A stretch of 64,000 nucleotides of DNA from Arenicellales bacterium (GTDB lineage Bacteria; Pseudomonadota; Gammaproteobacteria; Arenicellales; JAJDZL01), in NCBI GenBank assembly GCA_951813075.1, contig OX638343.1:1335999-1399998 (forward strand), in the 5' to 3' direction. Positions 2,775 to 64,000 of this stretch are shown here, piece by piece. A program made the translations under genes and the position numbers. The notes under the pieces are model-generated. The model had not been told where the DNA came from. It was given only the letters and a program-made list of their open reading frames with translations, and ran no database searches. Every line of letters starts with the position of its first letter. Within the stretch, counting starts at the first letter, position 1.

Positions 2775-3011
2775 ATGCCAAGAGTCTGTCAGCTTACTGG
2801 AAAGAAAACAACCAGCGGAAACAACGTTTCCAACGCAAAGAACAAGACGAAACGTAAATTCTGTCCGAATCTCCATTATCGTAGAATTTGGGTGGAGAGT
2901 GAAAACCGCTGGGTTAAACTTCGGCTGACCCAGAAAGCCATGCGTACTATCGACAAGAATGGAATCGATGCGGTGCTTGCCGAGCTGCGCTCGAACGGCG
3001 TTAAGGTATAA
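2775..3011 (+). CDS. rpmB: 50S ribosomal protein L28
   Basis: [33 protein letters not shown]... (78 aa). The start is moved from the longest-ORF position 2727 to the internal ATG. Confidence 0.95.
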
Positions 3012-3035
3012 ATTGAGTTCGGAGATCTATCGATC

Positions 3036-3221
3036 ATGAGTGAAGGCAAACAAGAGAGAAAACAAAAACGTGCGAACATCAGACTTGTTTCGTCCGCAGG
3101 AACAGGGCACTTCTATACGACTTCCAAAAACAATACCAACGCGCCAGATAAACTTGAACTGAAAAAGTACGACCCTGTCGCTGGTAAGCACGTCATCTAT
3201 AAAGAAAGCAAGATGAAATAG
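3036..3221 (+). CDS. rpmG: 50S ribosomal protein L33
   Basis: [17 protein letters not shown]...KLELKKYDP...HVIYKESK is colinear with E. coli L33. Confidence 0.93.
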
Positions 3222-3315
3222 TTGAATTTGATCTCGCCGGTTGAGGTCATATCAGCGATCTTCATCCCAACCCTCAACGGGTCACGCCAGTTGCGCGTTC
3301 AGCCCAGCAGACTGA

Positions 3316-4488
3316 TCACACACAGACACTGCTCTTGAGTCGCATTGAAAAACGCATCAGCGCATCTATTCCAGACTGTTCCGCAAGCTGGCACCACTCG
3401 TCCAGCGAATGACGTAAATTTTCATAGGAAGTCGAAGACTTCATGGCGATGCCTCGAAGTTTTTCCTTCATAACATAAACCTGATGCAACTTTTTATTTG
3501 ATGCGAGGAATTGACGCAACTGCTGGCGGTGCTTCTCGCTCAACTGGTGTTCTTCAGCTGATAGCAATCGCCTGGCATTCTTGATCATTTTTTTCGACTC
3601 CCCGGTAGCATGTCGAGACTCGTCCTTCAGCACATCCAATACCACTTCGCGTGCGTAATTTGACATGACCTGGAATCGATTTGTTGCAAAAGCCCTGGCT
3701 GTTTCAAAATCGCATTGTCTCTTTTCGCTTCGATATTCCAGAACCGGAATTTTGCGATTGATATTCAGTAAACGCAACAAACTGAAAAGGCGCACATACC
3801 ACCAGCCAATATCAATCTCCCACTTTCTTGCCGAAAACTGAGCAGACGACGCATACGCGTGATGGTTGTTGTGAAGCTCCTCGCCACCAATTATGATGCC
3901 CCATGGAACAATGTTCCGACTGGCATCCGGTAAATCGAAGTTGCGATAACCGGCAAAATGACCAACTCCGTTGATCACACCCGCAGCCCAGAATGGAATC
4001 CACAGCATCTGAATGACCCAGATCGCAGCACCCGCAACGATACCGAATAAAACGACATAAAGTGCAAAGAGAATGACGAGTCCACTGTAGTGATGCTTGC
4101 CATAGACGTGTGTTTCAAGCCAATCGTTGGGAGTACCTTTGCCATAAGTTTCCAGAATTCCCGGCAAACGGACTGCACGACGATACAGAAAGAATCCACC
4201 CCATAAAACAGAATTGATTCCGGTTTGCTGAGGACTGTGTGGATCGTCCTCGGATTCAACTGTAGCGTGGTGTTTGCGGTGAACCGCTACCCATTCCTTG
4301 GTAACAATTCCCGTCGTAAGCCAAAGCCAAAAGCGAAAGAAATGACTGAGAAATGGATGGAGCTTAAGTGCTAGATGCGCCTGACAACGATGCAGAAAGA
4401 CAGTGACAGAGACGATGGTAATATGCGTCAGCACCAAAGCGACCAATACATAACCCCACCAGGGAAGTTGAATAACTGAAAAACTCAC
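3316..4488 (-). CDS. membrane fatty-acid (acyl-CoA/acyl-lipid delta-9 type) desaturase
   Basis: N-terminal TM helices plus three His boxes: HRCQAH, HRKHH and HNNHH. It also has a soluble C-terminal extension of about 110 aa. Confidence 0.8.
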   Translation of the reverse strand: MSFSVIQLPWWGYVLVALVLTHITIVSVTVFLHRCQAHLALKLHPFLSHFFRFWLWLTTGIVTKEWVAVHRKHHATVESEDDPHSPQQTGINSVLWGGFFLYRRAVRLPGILETYGKGTPNDWLETHVYGKHHYSGLVILFALYVVLFGIVAGAAIWVIQMLWIPFWAAGVINGVGHFAGYRNFDLPDASRNIVPWGIIIGGEELHNNHHAYASSAQFSARKWEIDIGWWYVRLFSLLRLLNINRKIPVLEYRSEKRQCDFETARAFATNRFQVMSNYAREVVLDVLKDESRHATGESKKMIKNARRLLSAEEHQLSEKHRQQLRQFLASNKKLHQVYVMKEKLRGIAMKSSTSYENLRHSLDEWCQLAEQSGIDALMRFSMRLKSSVCV

Positions 4489-5635: not shown

Positions 5636-6412
5636 TTAACCAAGTTTCTGGCAAACCGCGGCGCCGATGATCGGGCCGGACACAATCTGCCGGGCACTGT
5701 CATATTGCTGAACGATCACTGCGCAGTTCTGATTATCGTTCAATACCCCGATGTCGGTTTCGTATTCAAGCGGCATACCCCGCCATTTTCCGACTGATTT
5801 CAAATCACGCACCACGTTGAAGTTTTCAAGAGTCTTCCCCATATTCTCACCCGATGGCACATCGGTAACGTGTTTCATATCGTAGACCAGAACCCAGACA
5901 TCGCCATCTGATTCATGATTACTTTTCACGCGGATTGTCAGGTCGCCAGAATCAGATACCACAGCTTCCATGTCGAGTACAAGATCCGACTTTTGTTTGA
6001 TTCGCTTGTATGCCGTGCTCGCCTTGCTACCGACAAAAGCATATTTGCCATTAACGATAATCTGAGGAGTGTATACACCAATACGACCATTCAGTCTTAG
6101 CCGGTTGTAGTCTCTCTGGCGCTTGCTGTAGGCGCTCGAAGAAAATGGATCTCGCCATTTCCCAGCTGATCCATATACCAGATTATCCCAGTAGTCGACA
6201 TGGAATTCGAGACCGAGAATTTCATCATTCTGCTCTATGATTTCGCCAAGCAATTTTTCGGCAGGCGGGCACGAATAACAGCCTTGTGATGTAAAAAGCT
6301 CGAAGACATGCTTTATTTTGGAGTCGGCTGCTACATTAGTCGCACCCAACATCGCTGTCACGGCCATGCTCGCGACAATCAGTGTCTGGAAAAATACCCT
6401 TCCAATAAACAT
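5636..6412 (-). CDS. DUF1223 thioredoxin-like periplasmic protein
   Basis: A signal peptide (MFIGRVFFQTLIVASMAVTAMLGATNVAA) is followed by ELFTSQGCYSCPPAEKLL and YWDNL...WRDPFSS motifs. The start is set at the internal ATG to avoid overlap with the divergent trmL. Confidence 0.7.
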   Translation of the reverse strand: MFIGRVFFQTLIVASMAVTAMLGATNVAADSKIKHVFELFTSQGCYSCPPAEKLLGEIIEQNDEILGLEFHVDYWDNLVYGSAGKWRDPFSSSAYSKRQRDYNRLRLNGRIGVYTPQIIVNGKYAFVGSKASTAYKRIKQKSDLVLDMEAVVSDSGDLTIRVKSNHESDGDVWVLVYDMKHVTDVPSGENMGKTLENFNVVRDLKSVGKWRGMPLEYETDIGVLNDNQNCAVIVQQYDSARQIVSGPIIGAAVCQKLG

Positions 6413-59709: not shown

Positions 59710-60489
59710 CTATTCAAGACGACTGAAATCAAAGTCCGCGATCACCGGCGCGTGGTCGGAAAATTTTACTTCCCTGTAGACATCCACTGAATCCACTGCC
59801 GCCTTCAAACGGTTGGATACGATGTGATAGTCCAAACGCCATCCAACGTTCTTGGCGTAAGCGTCACCGCGATTGGACCACCAAGTGTACTGACCAGGCC
59901 GCGAATCAATTAACCGGAAAGCATCTACGAATCCTGCCGAACCGAAAAGCCAATCCATCCATGATCTCTCCTGCGGCAGAAATCCAGAGTTTTTTCGGTT
60001 GCCTTTCCAATTTCGCAGGTCAACTGGTTTATGGGCAATATTGATGTCACCACATATGATGTAGTCCCTGCCGTCGGTTTGAAATTGGAGCAATAACGGT
60101 TGAATACGATCCAAAATGACTTCTTTGAACTTTTGACGCTCATCCGAACTGGTTCCTGACGGCATGTAGATCGATATGATCGTCAATTCCTCGAAGTCCG
60201 CCCGTACACATCGTCCTTCTGAATCGAAATCATCCCAACCGAGACCGATTGAGACGTCGGAAGGCATTTCTCTAGTATAAATTGCTGTACCGCTGTATCC
60301 TTTTTTCTCAGCGAAATGAAAGTACCCTTGATAACCCTGCGGATGAAACAATTCGTCTGTCAACTGATCCCGCTGGGCTTTAAGCTCCTGGATGCAAACA
60401 ACATCCGGCGCACTAGCGGACATCCATTCGTAGAAGCCTTTTCTTGCCGCCGAGCGGATTCCGTTGGCATTGAAGGTAACAACTTTCAT
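59710..60489 (-). CDS. xthA: exodeoxyribonuclease III
   Basis: MKVVTFNANGIRSA...CIQE...SDHAPV. Confidence 0.9.
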   Translation of the reverse strand: MKVVTFNANGIRSAARKGFYEWMSASAPDVVCIQELKAQRDQLTDELFHPQGYQGYFHFAEKKGYSGTAIYTREMPSDVSIGLGWDDFDSEGRCVRADFEELTIISIYMPSGTSSDERQKFKEVILDRIQPLLLQFQTDGRDYIICGDINIAHKPVDLRNWKGNRKNSGFLPQERSWMDWLFGSAGFVDAFRLIDSRPGQYTWWSNRGDAYAKNVGWRLDYHIVSNRLKAAVDSVDVYREVKFSDHAPVIADFDFSRLE

Positions 60490-60535
60490 TGGTGTAAATG
60501 ATCGGGCATGTTGGTCGCAGAGAAGTCGAAAATTT

Positions 60536-61639
60536 ATGAATAAATTCAGTCAGGCAAAAACCGAATCTCGTCATTTTAACCAATTGTTACTTGGTTGGGA
60601 CTGCAAGTTGCCCGGTCGGGGATTGCCCTGGGCATTCAGTACCGACCCATATCGTATTTGGATTTCCGAAATCATGTTACAACAGACACAGGCAAAGACG
60701 GTTGTCGGCTATTTCGAGAGGTTCATTGACGAGTTTCCTGACGTAGTCTCGCTGGCAGACGCCTCAACAGACAATGTAATGAGATTCTGGGCTGGACTGG
60801 GATACTACACAAGAGCCCGAAATCTTCATGCGGCCGCAAAGATTGTCAGAGATCAGCATCACGGTAAGTTTCCAAGTAATTTTCAGGACGTACTTGCACT
60901 GCCCGGTATCGGTAAATCAACTGCCGGTGCAATTTGCGCACTTGCGTACGGATTGAGGACACCGATCCTGGATGGCAACGCTAAACGTGTGTACGCACGC
61001 TATCACTGTGTGGATGACGATTCCGAATCCGCGCGTACCCGTCGCTTGTGGGAAATCGCCGAAGAGCACACACCGGAGCATCGCGTTCAAAGATATACCC
61101 AGCTGATTATGGACTTGGGAGCGACTGTCTGTACTCCAAGGAACCCGAAGTGTACGATCTGCCCGTTAATTCGCCTTTGCTGTGCGCATCACAACAATCT
61201 AACTGATCAGTTACCGAGACGCAAAATTTCAAGAGATCGTGACATCCGACATGTAACCATGCTGATTATTACGGATGATGCCAACCGTGTTTTGTTACAA
61301 CGGCGCCCGCCCGAAGGAATCTGGGGTAATTTATGGAGTTTTCCCGAATTCTCGGGCACGACTGAAGATATCGAATCTTGGTGCCACTCTCAATTGAAAG
61401 TGCAAATCAAAGCTTATTCCCCATGGAGCAGCATTAATCATGACTTTACACACTTTCGGCTGGTCATCACGCCGCACCCTGCGAAACTTGTGGAATTCGA
61501 TCCAAAATCAATGAAAGAAATCGACACGGCATTGTTTGCCATATCAGAAGCCAGGGCGATGGGGATTCCCGCTCCGGTGCGCACTTTGCTGACAAGCATG
61601 GAGAATGAGCCGATGCAAAGTAGTCATATGCGCACATGA
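60536..61639 (+). CDS. mutY: A/G-specific adenine DNA glycosylase
   Basis: PYRIWISEIMLQQTQAKTV and LPGIGKSTAGAI (HhH). The Fe-S cluster Cys pattern is C-x6-C-x2-C-x5-C (CTPRNPKCTICPLIRLC). A NUDIX-like C-terminal domain is present. The start is set at internal ATG 60536. Confidence 0.9.
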   Translation: MNKFSQAKTESRHFNQLLLGWDCKLPGRGLPWAFSTDPYRIWISEIMLQQTQAKTVVGYFERFIDEFPDVVSLADASTDNVMRFWAGLGYYTRARNLHAAAKIVRDQHHGKFPSNFQDVLALPGIGKSTAGAICALAYGLRTPILDGNAKRVYARYHCVDDDSESARTRRLWEIAEEHTPEHRVQRYTQLIMDLGATVCTPRNPKCTICPLIRLCCAHHNNLTDQLPRRKISRDRDIRHVTMLIITDDANRVLLQRRPPEGIWGNLWSFPEFSGTTEDIESWCHSQLKVQIKAYSPWSSINHDFTHFRLVITPHPAKLVEFDPKSMKEIDTALFAISEARAMGIPAPVRTLLTSMENEPMQSSHMRT

Positions 61640-61655
61640 GTGGAATTGTCCCCTG

Positions 61656-61725
61656 TTCGTTGAGTTCGTATTGGTACGACAACGTTTAGCACTTACAACC
61701 CTTTCGGTTGTGATCCCCGAAACAG
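61656..61725 (+). repeat. copy A of an imperfect direct repeat of the mutY-yggX junction (decayed yggX 5' end)
   Basis: Aligns without indels to 62512-62581 (offset 856 bp) at 53/70 identical. Two blocks are better conserved, at 21/22 and 26/30. The position homologous to the yggX ATG reads ATC, and the frame stops after 5 codons. Confidence 0.8.
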
Positions 61726-61838
61726 GCTAATGCATGCCTATTGACGAGGATCGTTGAGGTGACGCTCAGACCGCAGCCAACTCAGCGCAGCGACTGGCAT
61801 ACTATTTTAATGGCACTGGGTTTTTTACCCGACGATCA

Positions 61839-62123
61839 CTACTCCGTGCTTTGCGAAACGACTGTACTGAGGGGATTGGTACCAGTTTCAAATTTCGAGG
61901 AATCCGCGGATTTTCCACTTTTTTTCCCTCGCATAACGACCATCCGTTCATGCAAATATGCAATCCGGCTACTACCGGTTGATACGAAGAGGCCCGGCGC
62001 AAAAGCGTGAATTGCGCAGGCGATCGCGCCAGTCAGCATGTGCCCGGCGAACGACAAAGCATTACCCATGTGGTCAAAATATGTTTCGTTCACGTCGTCA
62101 AGATGTTGAGACCATCGATTCAT
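61839..62123 (-). CDS. small hypothetical membrane protein (resembles the family I recall being labelled DUF6356)
   Basis: MNRWSQHLDDVNETYFDHMGNALSFAGHMLTGAIACAIHAFAPGLFVSTGSSRIAYLHERM... The family label is from memory and unverified. The longest ORF starts at 62150. Confidence 0.45.
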   Translation of the reverse strand: MNRWSQHLDDVNETYFDHMGNALSFAGHMLTGAIACAIHAFAPGLFVSTGSSRIAYLHERMVVMRGKKSGKSADSSKFETGTNPLSTVVSQSTE

Positions 62124-62511
62124 TGCATCAGTCCGATTTGAAGTAATCAATATAGGAATATAATAACGAATAAATATTGTAATTACAAACCATTCTTACA
62201 TCTATATGTACGATAAGTAAAATATTATTGCATATTTGTCAATAATATTAGAAATAGTTAGTCATTCACTTCAACTAAAAAAATTATCTGTCAAATAGCG
62301 GTGAGGGATGCTTTCGAATTCCGTGCTACCCGTATTGTTTTAACTGATGGGATTGAAGCCGGATTCAATTGAAGAACTCGGCTTGCATTGTCTGTTGTTT
62401 CAGCAACAGAACAGTCGGGGTTCCTGCTCCAGTGCCAAATTTGCTCACAATTATTGAGAACGAACTAACGCAAGACAGCTATCTGTCCATGTGAGAAAAT
62501 TTATTATCCTT

Positions 62512-62581
62512 TTCGTTGAATTCGTATTGGTACAATAGATCCAAACACCATCAACCCTTTCAATTGTTATGCCCGAAACAG
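62512..62581 (+). repeat. copy B of the direct repeat (functional yggX upstream region and start)
   Basis: See copy A. This copy contains an extended -10-like TGgTACAAT (62528-62536) and the real yggX ATG at 62569. Confidence 0.8.
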
Positions 62582-62838
62582 TAAAGTGCCTGCTTCTTGG
62601 CGAGGAACTGCCAGCAATGGCAATGCCTCCCCTTCCAGGCGAACTGGGTGAAAAGATTCAAACCCAAATTTCGCAGAAAGCGTGGCAGTTGTGGTTGGAA
62701 CATCAAACCATGCTGATCAATGAAAAACGACTCAGTATGGGTAAACCTGATCACCGAAAATATCTTATGGAACAGATGGAGAAGTATCTTTTCGGTGGCG
62801 ATTTTGATAAACCTGCTGGTTATGTTCCGCCTTCGTAA
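62569..62838 (+). CDS. yggX: Fe(2+)-trafficking / oxidative-damage protection protein
   Basis: 89 aa. PGELGEKIQTQISQKAWQLWLEHQTMLINEKRLSM is colinear with E. coli YggX. Confidence 0.87.
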   Translation: MPETVKCLLLGEELPAMAMPPLPGELGEKIQTQISQKAWQLWLEHQTMLINEKRLSMGKPDHRKYLMEQMEKYLFGGDFDKPAGYVPPS

Positions 62839-62874
62839 TTCAAGTGGAATTCTTCGACTACTGATGTAGCACTA

Positions 62875-62903
62875 TTGCCATTCCCCCGACTTCAATCTAT
62901 AAT
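62875..62903 (+). promoter_or_regulatory. sigma70-type promoter candidate upstream of tRNA-Phe
   Basis: TTGCCA (62875-62880), a 17-nt spacer, then TATAAT (62898-62903). It lies about 117 nt upstream of the tRNA 5' end. Confidence 0.4.
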
Positions 62904-63019
62904 TTTGCGGGTTCATTTCATTGTTCAGATGCAATTCTTAGCACTGCGTTTTTGCGGTAAATCAAAGGGCAACCCATAACAGTATTTCCAGCCGGAAATT
63001 GCCTTTTGTCTCTGATTCT

Positions 63020-63092
63020 GGCCAGGTAGCTCAGTCGGTAGAGCTGGGGACTGAAAATCCCCGAGTCGGCAGTTCGATTCTGTCCCTGGCCA
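63020..63092 (+). tRNA. tRNA-Phe (anticodon GAA)
   Basis: Hand-folded cloverleaf. Acceptor stem GGCCAGG/CCTGGCC; D arm GCTC-AGTCGGTA-GAGC; anticodon arm GGGGA-CTGAAAA-TCCCC; T arm GGCAG-TTCGATT-CTGTC; discriminator A. It is near-identical in layout to E. coli tRNA-Phe. The CCA end is not fully encoded (ACCT). Confidence 0.92.
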
Positions 63093-63228
63093 CCTGATTT
63101 TCAATTCGGTTGTTGATTTAGGTCGTCTATTCCATGAACACTTGGAATGCAACCATCCATAAGTGCAGTCGATCAATCACTAGCAAGAAGAAAAAGTTTC
63201 TACTTCAGAATATTTTCGATTCCTACGA

Positions 63229-64000
63229 GTGTATTTGAACCTGTTCAGCTGCCGGAATAGGAAATATCGAAAAAACTACGTCGACCCATGGTCCGGCTAC
63301 TCGCTGAACGTGCTCGGTGATGTGAACCTGGAGTTGCCGATTGACTTCAATGTGGTACCGACCTGTGATATTGAGAACACGCACTGTGAGGCACCGCTGG
63401 ATACGTTCGTTGATTCGGACCTGGGCGGTCGGTGCGAGACCTTTGTGGCCGACCGCGGTCTGGACAACGACGGGATTCGCAGGAAACTGCATGACAGGGA
63501 CATTCTGGCGCTGATTGACACCCGCAATCTGTGGCAGGAGGACCATCTTGATGCGGACCAGCTCAAGGCGCCGACGCGGCCGTTGCATTCGAATGTGTAC
63601 GACACGATGCTGCGTACCGAGTGCGGTGATCTTTATTGCCGCTGTCCTGAAATCGGCCGTATTCGGCTGATGCATTATCAGGGTCATGAGCAACAAAGAG
63701 GCACCTTGAAGTGGGTGTGTCCGGTGGCGGCCTTCGAGTTTGACTGTCAGGGCCGGGCCGAGTGCTATCGTCTGGGCCGGGTCAGAGCCGACGCCAGGTC
63801 CAGGTAGTGCGCACCAAAGTGGATAATCTTCGCCAGCGCCCGTCACTGTCGCCTTTGAGTCTGAAGTGGGCGCTTCTTTACCGCCAAAGAAGTGCGATGG
63901 AGCGAATCAATTCCAGAGTGGCCGATGGATTCATGCTGCACAGCCATTATCTGCGCGGCAGAAAGTCAATGGCACTAAAGATCACCATCTCGATGACGGT
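63229..64000 (+). mobile_element. 5'-truncated, frameshifted IS4/IS5-superfamily DDE transposase remnant (continues past window end)
   Basis: GYSLNVLGDVNLELPIDFNVVPT... and FVADRGLDNDGIRRKL (DDE aspartates). The frame ends at TAG 63805-63807. Reading continues in another frame from 63807 (VRTKVDNLRQRP...LLYRQRSAMERINSRVADGF), which carries a Y-x2-R-x3-E motif. There is no N-terminal domain. G+C is 72/120 in 63361-63480, versus about 42% in nearby backbone. Confidence 0.65.

Follow-up and report, generated by a model that had tools for sequence, protein, structure and literature searches.

A DUF6356 gene between two copies of the mutY-yggX junction: a probable one-time duplication-insertion in uncultured gammaproteobacteria

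The genes mutY and yggX are neighbours in Escherichia coli and other Proteobacteria. In the gammaproteobacterial DNA analysed here, a 64-kb stretch with a G+C content of 48.2% (the window, to whose positions all coordinates refer unless a relative is named), both genes are intact and are separated by a gene for a protein of the DUF6356 family. MutY has full-length homologs at 98-49% identity, and YggX matches its families over the full length (PF04362: 120 bits versus a cut-off of 27; NCBIfam equivalog NF003817: 122 bits versus 74). Exact-sequence look-up returned no record for the window's YggX and for P0006. From left to right we found mutY, a spacer, a dead yggX start, an insert, a dead mutY end, a spacer with a likely promoter and yggX (Table 1). 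This arrangement probably goes back to an old, one-time rearrangement that copied a 590-bp chromosomal stretch into the mutY-yggX junction and duplicated 268 bp of the target, and we favour a duplication-insertion in a single step.

The starting point was a direct repeat described in an earlier note on this DNA, which was made from the sequence without database searches. The repeat was reproduced: positions 61656-61725 and 62512-62581 align without gaps at an offset of 856 and are identical at 53 of 70 positions, beyond anything in shuffled sequence (best 70-mer over 30 shuffles of the region: mean 35.5, maximum 40). Both conserved blocks occur at exactly two places each in the window, with 0 expected. 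The note had let the repeat run over some 70-120 nt, about 20 nt of it towards mutY, which proved too short. In a repeat search the ungapped match extended to 99 nt at 74% identity (61652-61750 versus 62508-62606), and gapped local alignment joined 61485-61750 to 62342-62606 at 68% identity (179/264, three small indels) with a score of 170 (200 shuffles: mean 22.5, maximum 39). Two more aligned bases, TC in the left copy and AC in yggX, place junction b, the joint with the insert, at 61752/62608. Each copy thus comprises 155 nt from the end of mutY, stop codon included, then the spacer and 40 nt from the start of yggX, 268 bp in all. That is, the junction itself was duplicated, as the note had proposed, and the duplication reaches into the ends of both genes. 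Identity between the copies is 66% in the mutY end, 67% in the spacer and 75% in the yggX start. No run of identity exceeds 13 nt, so that homologous recombination can hardly excise the insert today.

One gene end is dead in each copy. In the left copy the yggX start reads ATC CCC GAA ACA GGC TAA; the ATG has become ATC and the frame closes after five codons, in agreement with the earlier reading. This dead start is discernible in the window and in the relatives L008 and L009. In the right copy the mutY end is recognizable by RTVGVPAPVPNLLTIIENELTQDSYL, which aligns to MutY residues 340-365; it contains one frameshift and has kept the stop codon TGA at 62492-62494. Accordingly, about 150 of the roughly 220 bp that had been left unassigned (62342-62494) are the dead 3' end of mutY. 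Small open reading frames (ORFs) of 41 and 89 amino acids (61605-61730 and 61741-62010) cross the dead yggX start and the oxidoreductase relic described below, and gene-finder ORFs directly 3' of mutY in L009 (65 amino acids, 2179-2376) and L010 (35 amino acids, 6101-6208) lie in the same relic DNA. Judged by their position, these ORFs are almost certainly relics and not genes. A hairpin in the left copy (ACAACC-CTTTC-GGTTGT) was considered as a functional element and rejected, being unconserved in the right copy and in other left copies. Likewise, no direction of gene conversion could be read: sites that differ between the right copies of the window and its closest relative, L007, match the left copy both ways.

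The insert proper runs from 61753 to about 62341. It is therefore about 590 bp long; the 0.86 kb given before corresponds to the repeat offset of 856 bp and not to the insert. Its sole gene is that for the DUF6356 protein. At the left edge lie the last codons of a molybdopterin oxidoreductase gene: GTTGAGGTGACGCTCAGA in the window reads VEVTLR, the equivalent stretches in L008 and L009 read VDVSLKQ* and VIVMLQQ*, and the intact gene of L016 ends in FVEVSLRQ*. L016 carries DUF6356 in another neighbourhood, and its DNA aligns with the insert over almost the entire length (window 62296-61753 versus L016 3840-4363; 363/516, 70%). The alignment takes in 173 nt of the AT-rich tract upstream of DUF6356, the gene itself, the intergenic DNA beyond it and the region of the oxidoreductase stop codon. 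Its last position is 61753, right next to 61752, where the left repeat copy stops, so that two alignments made independently meet with neither gap nor overlap.

This source neighbourhood consists of succinate dehydrogenase, a two-subunit fumarase, DUF6356 and the convergent molybdopterin oxidoreductase. We found it in L016/L017, L018/L019 and L020, whose DUF6356 proteins are 71, 54 and 72% identical to that of the window, and one further contig carries both DUF6356 and the oxidoreductase among the matches listed. In L018/L019 and L020 the type of oxidoreductase downstream of DUF6356 is identical, and the part of their DNA that aligns to the window is limited to the upstream tract and the initial two-thirds of the DUF6356 gene. 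The upstream tract is the stretch for which a G+C content of 21% had been noted (62140-62290: 21.2%). It is kept in every DUF6356 locus in both contexts, so the gene travelled with its own upstream region, which probably carries the DUF6356 promoter, to judge from the tract's conservation. A candidate TTGTAA-17-TATTAT lies on the minus strand at 62188-62160; such matches are no commoner here than in shuffled sequence.

At the right edge the joint, junction a, falls into a zone (62297-62341) that shows weak similarity to both sides, and the last 45 nt of the insert have no significant alignment to the source locus. A 9-nt match, ACCCTGCGA, that mutY (61475-61483) shares with L016 upstream of DUF6356 was examined as microhomology at junction a and dismissed as chance: it is not colinear with the alignment, and L018 and L020 lack it. 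At this place in mutY the other occupied lineages have different letters (for example CAACCCGCGA in L008). Between the repeats the ORF list and Pfam gave no transposase or integrase ORF, and the repeat search found no terminal inverted repeats, the inverted repeats present being internal or scattered. By its sequence, the insert is ordinary chromosomal DNA and not a mobile element.

We then ranked relatives by MutY identity to the window and read the site from the contigs of their MutY homologs. The site is occupied in L007 (MutY 98%), which has the full 268-nt duplication like the window, in L008 (84%), where 4.4 kb of extra cargo precede yggX, in L009 (82%), whose contig stops before yggX, and in L010/L011 (77%), labelled Acidiferrobacterales. 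The insert is present in all four lineages, together with remnants of the two repeat copies. In the window, L007, L008 and L009 the left copy breaks at the identical base and runs on into the same oxidoreductase relic; L010 has kept block 1 both directly after the mutY stop and upstream of yggX, and 67 nt of the right copy are left in L008. The site is empty in L012 (72%; 75-nt spacer), L013 (62%) and L014/L015 (54%), each with one junction copy, and the L012 spacer has a single block 1 with TGGTACAAT. Here, as in E. coli, yggX directly follows mutY, the gap in these outgroups being 51-75 nt; in the occupied clade, in contrast, the pair is split by a convergent gene. Upstream of xthA, the genes of L012 and L014/L015 are those of L010, and L013 has xthA alone in common. 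A MutY search of genome contigs added only relatives of 41-44% identity (Aliivibrio, Halioglobus). In a neighbour-joining tree, the DUF6356 proteins of the mutY-yggX context form one clade nested among those of the fumarase-oxidoreductase context. Empty outgroups, a shared breakpoint and the nested clade together mean gain rather than loss, a single origin and vertical descent. The claim of an insertion between formerly adjacent genes thus held.

Table 1. Features of the mutY-yggX region in the window.
Feature	Position	Strand	Remarks
mutY (A/G-specific adenine glycosylase), intact, 367 amino acids	60536..61639	+	Pfam HhH-GPD, NUDIX_4, Fe-S motif
Left repeat copy	61485..61752	+	live mutY 3' end 61485-61639, spacer 61640-61712, dead yggX start 61713-61752
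Block 1, left copy (TTCGTTGAGTTCGTATTGGTAC)	61656..61677	+	copies near-identical in the window, 21/22
Oxidoreductase relic	61753..61776	+	left insert edge; last 7 codons of molybdopterin oxidoreductase
DUF6356 gene, 94 amino acids	61839..62123	-	Pfam PF19883, E 1.3e-23
AT-rich upstream tract of DUF6356	62124..62296	-	21-23% G+C; alignable to L016, L018 and L020 upstream tracts
Junction a zone (insert right edge / dead mutY end)	62297..62341	.	exact base not fixed; alignments stop at 62296 and restart at 62342
Right repeat copy	62342..62608	+	dead mutY 3' end 62342-62494, spacer 62495-62568, live yggX start
Extended -10-like element (TGGTACAAT)	62528..62536	+	32 nt before yggX ATG; read from sequence
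yggX (Fe(2+)-trafficking / oxidative damage protection protein), intact, 89 amino acids	62569..62838	+	PF04362, E 3e-35
tRNA-Phe	63020..63092		Rfam

The event is old, as the earlier note had supposed: lineages whose MutY is as little as 77% identical still share it. When fourfold-degenerate sites of mutY are compared, the window has an identity of 0.67 with L008, 0.58 with L009, 0.53 with L010 and 0.40 with L012. From the L010 value a Jukes-Cantor clock with one neutral and one constrained branch, each starting at the base of the clade, predicts an identity of about 0.59 between a dead and a live copy; we observed 0.66-0.75. Since the copies are no more diverged than decay in place predicts, there is no room for a junction that was already foreign on arrival, and the earlier suggestion of an incoming, diverged junction is not needed. 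Across lineages the left copies are 67-74% identical, compared with 58-67% at fourfold sites. Allowing for the upward bias of local alignment, this is close to neutral divergence, with no sign of selection on the left copy. As a whole, the divergence of the copies agrees with neutral decay that began with one event at the base of the clade.

Judged by this geometry, a one-step duplication-insertion, by replication template switching or by repair of a staggered break, is the most likely mechanism. We place it in the common ancestor of this uncultured gammaproteobacterial group. Replication would have passed through mutY as far as codon 14 of yggX, jumped to the DUF6356 locus at the end of the oxidoreductase gene, copied 590 nt (the last seven oxidoreductase codons, the downstream intergenic DNA, the DUF6356 gene and some 170 nt of the AT-rich DNA upstream of it) and returned to the original template 268 nt upstream of where it had left. 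Alternatively, a break with long staggered ends could have captured the fragment, the gaps being filled in. In the outcome mutY has kept the left 3' end, yggX the probable promoter and the start on the right, and the redundant halves, the dead yggX start on the left and the dead mutY end on the right, have decayed at about the neutral rate. The target duplication left both neighbours intact, and hence the event was tolerated.

The original DUF6356 copy would later have been lost, so that the net result was a relocation. Among the matches listed, each large contig of the occupied clade has one DUF6356 match; the oxidoreductase matches listed include no large contig of the occupied clade, and seven outgroup contigs appear in both the oxidoreductase and the MutY lists. 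This weakly suggests that the old locus is gone from the occupied clade.

Several points weigh against this account. Only the window and L007 have a detectable dead mutY end; for L008, L009 and L010 nothing scored above shuffles, with at most about 25 nt in L010, so that a single 268-nt duplication requires later deletions or replacements in those lineages. Junction b offers at most 1-3 nt of possible microhomology, and junction a is not resolved to the base. After such decay the mechanism leaves no unique signature. The DUF6356 tree, computed from 94 residues, carries no support values. Loss of the old locus is argued from indirect contig matching among the matches listed. Finally, the donor locus was seen solely in other genomes, in none of the occupied clade, and transformation with DNA of a close relative, instead of the same chromosome, could have supplied the fragment.

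Among the closest parallels is template switching by fork stalling and template switching (FoSTeS) or microhomology-mediated break-induced replication (MMBIR), which yields insertions with small flanking copy-number gains in human complex insertions (PMC5120786). Common to both are a segment from a non-adjacent locus between two copies of the target, the lack of mobile-element features, and illegitimate joints with little or no homology. In contrast, the present event is ancient, bacterial and fixed, involves hundreds of base pairs, has joints whose microhomology is no longer readable, and its mechanism is deduced from geometry alone. We tentatively go one step further and consider it possible, although on balance doubtful, that this is a naturally fixed bacterial case of replication-based duplication-insertion in one step. 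Two template switches 268 nt apart would have moved a gene together with its own promoter, with no mobile element involved, and the long target duplication would have made the insertion harmless to both neighbours, which look essential.

Among the other explanations, integration of a circle deserves the most attention, unlikely as we consider it. The earlier note had named a Campbell-type entry, next to a duplication-mediated one. In the version considered here, a small circle, possibly from a relative, carrying a mutY'-yggX' junction and DUF6356, would have recombined with the chromosomal junction in a single crossover. The geometry is exactly that of a single crossover, as both copies span the same segment from junction a to junction b in direct orientation, and each interrupted gene is present in one complete and one truncated copy, as in a Campbell integrant. 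Recombination with relatives does occur at the site, as seen in a patch of about 250 nt with clustered, mostly synonymous differences against the otherwise 98-99% identical L007. But the insert is chromosomal DNA of the fumarase-DUF6356-oxidoreductase locus with a relic of the neighbouring gene, and we found no replicon or element backbone, that is, no vector, replication or integrase sequence. Moreover, forming the circle would first take both illegitimate joints seen at the site (yggX codon 14 to the oxidoreductase relic, and mutY codon 316 or thereabouts to the DUF6356 upstream region), an extra step that explains nothing more. The divergence of the copies, no greater than decay in place predicts, gives no sign of a foreign copy either.

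A history of at least two steps is slightly less probable still. The junction or a larger segment would have been duplicated in tandem and the cassette inserted at the joint, or a larger duplication would have been trimmed by internal deletions. Tandem duplications are frequent in bacteria, the final layout would be identical, and L008 and L010 have visibly lost pseudogene DNA at this site by deletion or replacement. However, unselected tandem duplications collapse fast, and the scenario demands either two independent rare events at one base pair or a DUF6356 gene originally near yggX. No outgroup has DUF6356 near yggX; L012, L013 and L014 have other genes downstream.

It is very improbable that the insert is what remains of a mobile element, be it a transposon or an integrase-driven island aimed at the yggX 5' end, with the greater part deleted afterwards. 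Islands at gene ends (tRNA, transfer-messenger RNA or protein genes), which bring along a new end for the gene, do leave a dead displaced fragment on one side and the intact gene on the other, as here, and here too the slot later collected toxin-antitoxin cargo, with typical island genes in L008 and L009. A transposon likewise makes a direct target duplication around new DNA, by staggered cuts and fill-in. Yet no locus has an integrase or transposase between the repeats, and terminal inverted repeats are lacking; no tyrosine or serine recombinase lies between mutY and yggX in the window, L007, L008 or L010/L011, or in L009 up to the contig end before yggX. The duplication of 268 bp is far beyond the 2-14 bp of transposon target duplications, and, unlike at an island, both neighbours are partly duplicated and the cassette beside the left copy is DNA from the group's own chromosome, with its relic of a neighbour gene. 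The toxin-antitoxin cargo is missing from the window, L007 and the early-branching L010, which marks it as a later addition. As to an attachment-site (att) core, the longest run shared by both ends is 13 nt; an original core could have decayed.

Least credible of all is that the occupied arrangement is ancestral, the outgroups having lost the gene and the similarity of the two sides being kept by selection (for example on a shared regulatory site) or by gene conversion: all close relatives do have the gene, which agrees with what the earlier note had expected of an ancestral arrangement, and block 1 is nearly identical in both copies of the window, but repeat-free empty sites exist further out, in three successive outgroups, the two sides resemble each other over coding ends of two different genes, of which one copy each is dead, which no regulatory model fits, left copies decay about neutrally between lineages, the insert holds the relic of a gene from another locus, and the DUF6356 proteins of the occupied clade nest among those of the other context.

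The spacer gives hints on how yggX may be expressed after such a split. L007, L010 (TGGTAAAAT) and L012, in its empty-site spacer (TGGTACAAT), also have the extended -10-like element of the right copy, which is degenerate in all left copies (TGGTACGAC in the window), the element having been read by eye. It is a probable promoter of yggX's own, and yggX in the occupied clade most likely depends on it; the empty-site relative L012 already has it. A promoter and terminator scan gave counts no higher than in shuffles, and its -35/-10 search missed the extended element, so the promoter call rests on reading and conservation. We found no paper on a mutY-yggX promoter in this group. The 25 nt before the yggX ATG (62544-62568, CAACCCTTTCAATTGTTATG) contain no Shine-Dalgarno-like purine run. 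This pyrimidine-rich stretch is among the best-conserved parts of the spacer (window and equivalents in L007, L008 and L012) and may point to an atypical start of translation or to a regulatory site. In L010/L011, about 150 nt of extra DNA (L010 6672-6822) lie between block 1 with the -10-like element and the yggX ATG; with transcription from the same promoter, the 5' leader would be long.

The DUF6356 protein itself is well defined as a family member. It matches PF19883 with 83.3 bits (gathering threshold 24.4) over profile positions 4-62 of 64, its start codon is set by 12 homologs that all begin with M(N/K)RWSQHLD, and 30 columns are invariant among 13 homologs. The protein has no NCBIfam name, and in the literature we found DUF6356 mentioned in one paper, in passing. 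An AlphaFold2 model from 13 sequences was poor, with a predicted local distance difference test score (pLDDT) of 62 and a predicted template modelling score (pTM) of 0.26, and showed one long helix. The reverse-strand gene for 94 amino acids in the earlier note is real, and its label as a membrane protein was not confirmed. Scanning metagenomes with the DUF6356 alignment returned 80 loci, all of at most 52% identity, with no MutY, YggX, fumarase, SdhA or oxidoreductase within 3.5 kb; the fumarase-oxidoreductase context is thus restricted to closer relatives.

Two lineages have gained further genes in the slot between the cassette and yggX (L008 6950-11020, L009 3041-3549). This cargo comprises a FitA-like antitoxin with a PIN-domain toxin, a helix-turn-helix protein, an OYE-type flavin mononucleotide oxidoreductase and HigB/HigA. 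From these gains, the mutY-yggX slot appears to be a local hot spot for accessory genes. In L008 an IS110-family transposase gene (2901-4082) lies between a gene for a MarR-type regulator and xthA, just 5' of mutY, and is not found in the other loci. The window and L007 are 98-100% identical over mutY, the left copy and DUF6356. Across 62430-62690 (L007 2050-2310), identity falls to 80% in 62477-62576, is 90% in 62577-62676 and then returns to 99%. The differences inside yggX are mostly synonymous, with two amino-acid changes, and the patch looks as though one of the two lineages had imported a short segment by recombination with a diverged relative.

In an Rfam scan of 60000-64000 the tRNA-Phe was the only hit, and neither repeat copy contains a known RNA. 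Beyond this tRNA gene, at 63223-64000, G+C rises to 55-62% (window: 48%) and long ORFs overlap on both strands. The plus frame resembles a frameshifted remnant of a DDE transposase (..FVADRGLDNDG..); Pfam and NCBIfam searches with it gave no match. The segment may be a decayed insertion beside the tRNA gene.

What we describe is a well-resolved fossil of a rearrangement and not a new kind of system. Fixed changes of gene order in bacteria are seldom resolved to the base pair with source locus, empty site and polarity together. In this group, a gene historically tied to the locus of succinate dehydrogenase, fumarase and a molybdopterin oxidoreductase was apparently relocated without mobile-element machinery, and a long target duplication shielded both flanking genes. 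Paired dead gene ends provide a simple signature by which like events can be searched for. If replication-based duplication-insertion in one step is true for this locus and general, it would amount to an overlooked way in which bacterial gene order changes, recognizable by paired dead gene ends around relocated genes, and in this case it would have opened a slot that later turned into a hot spot for toxin-antitoxin cargo.

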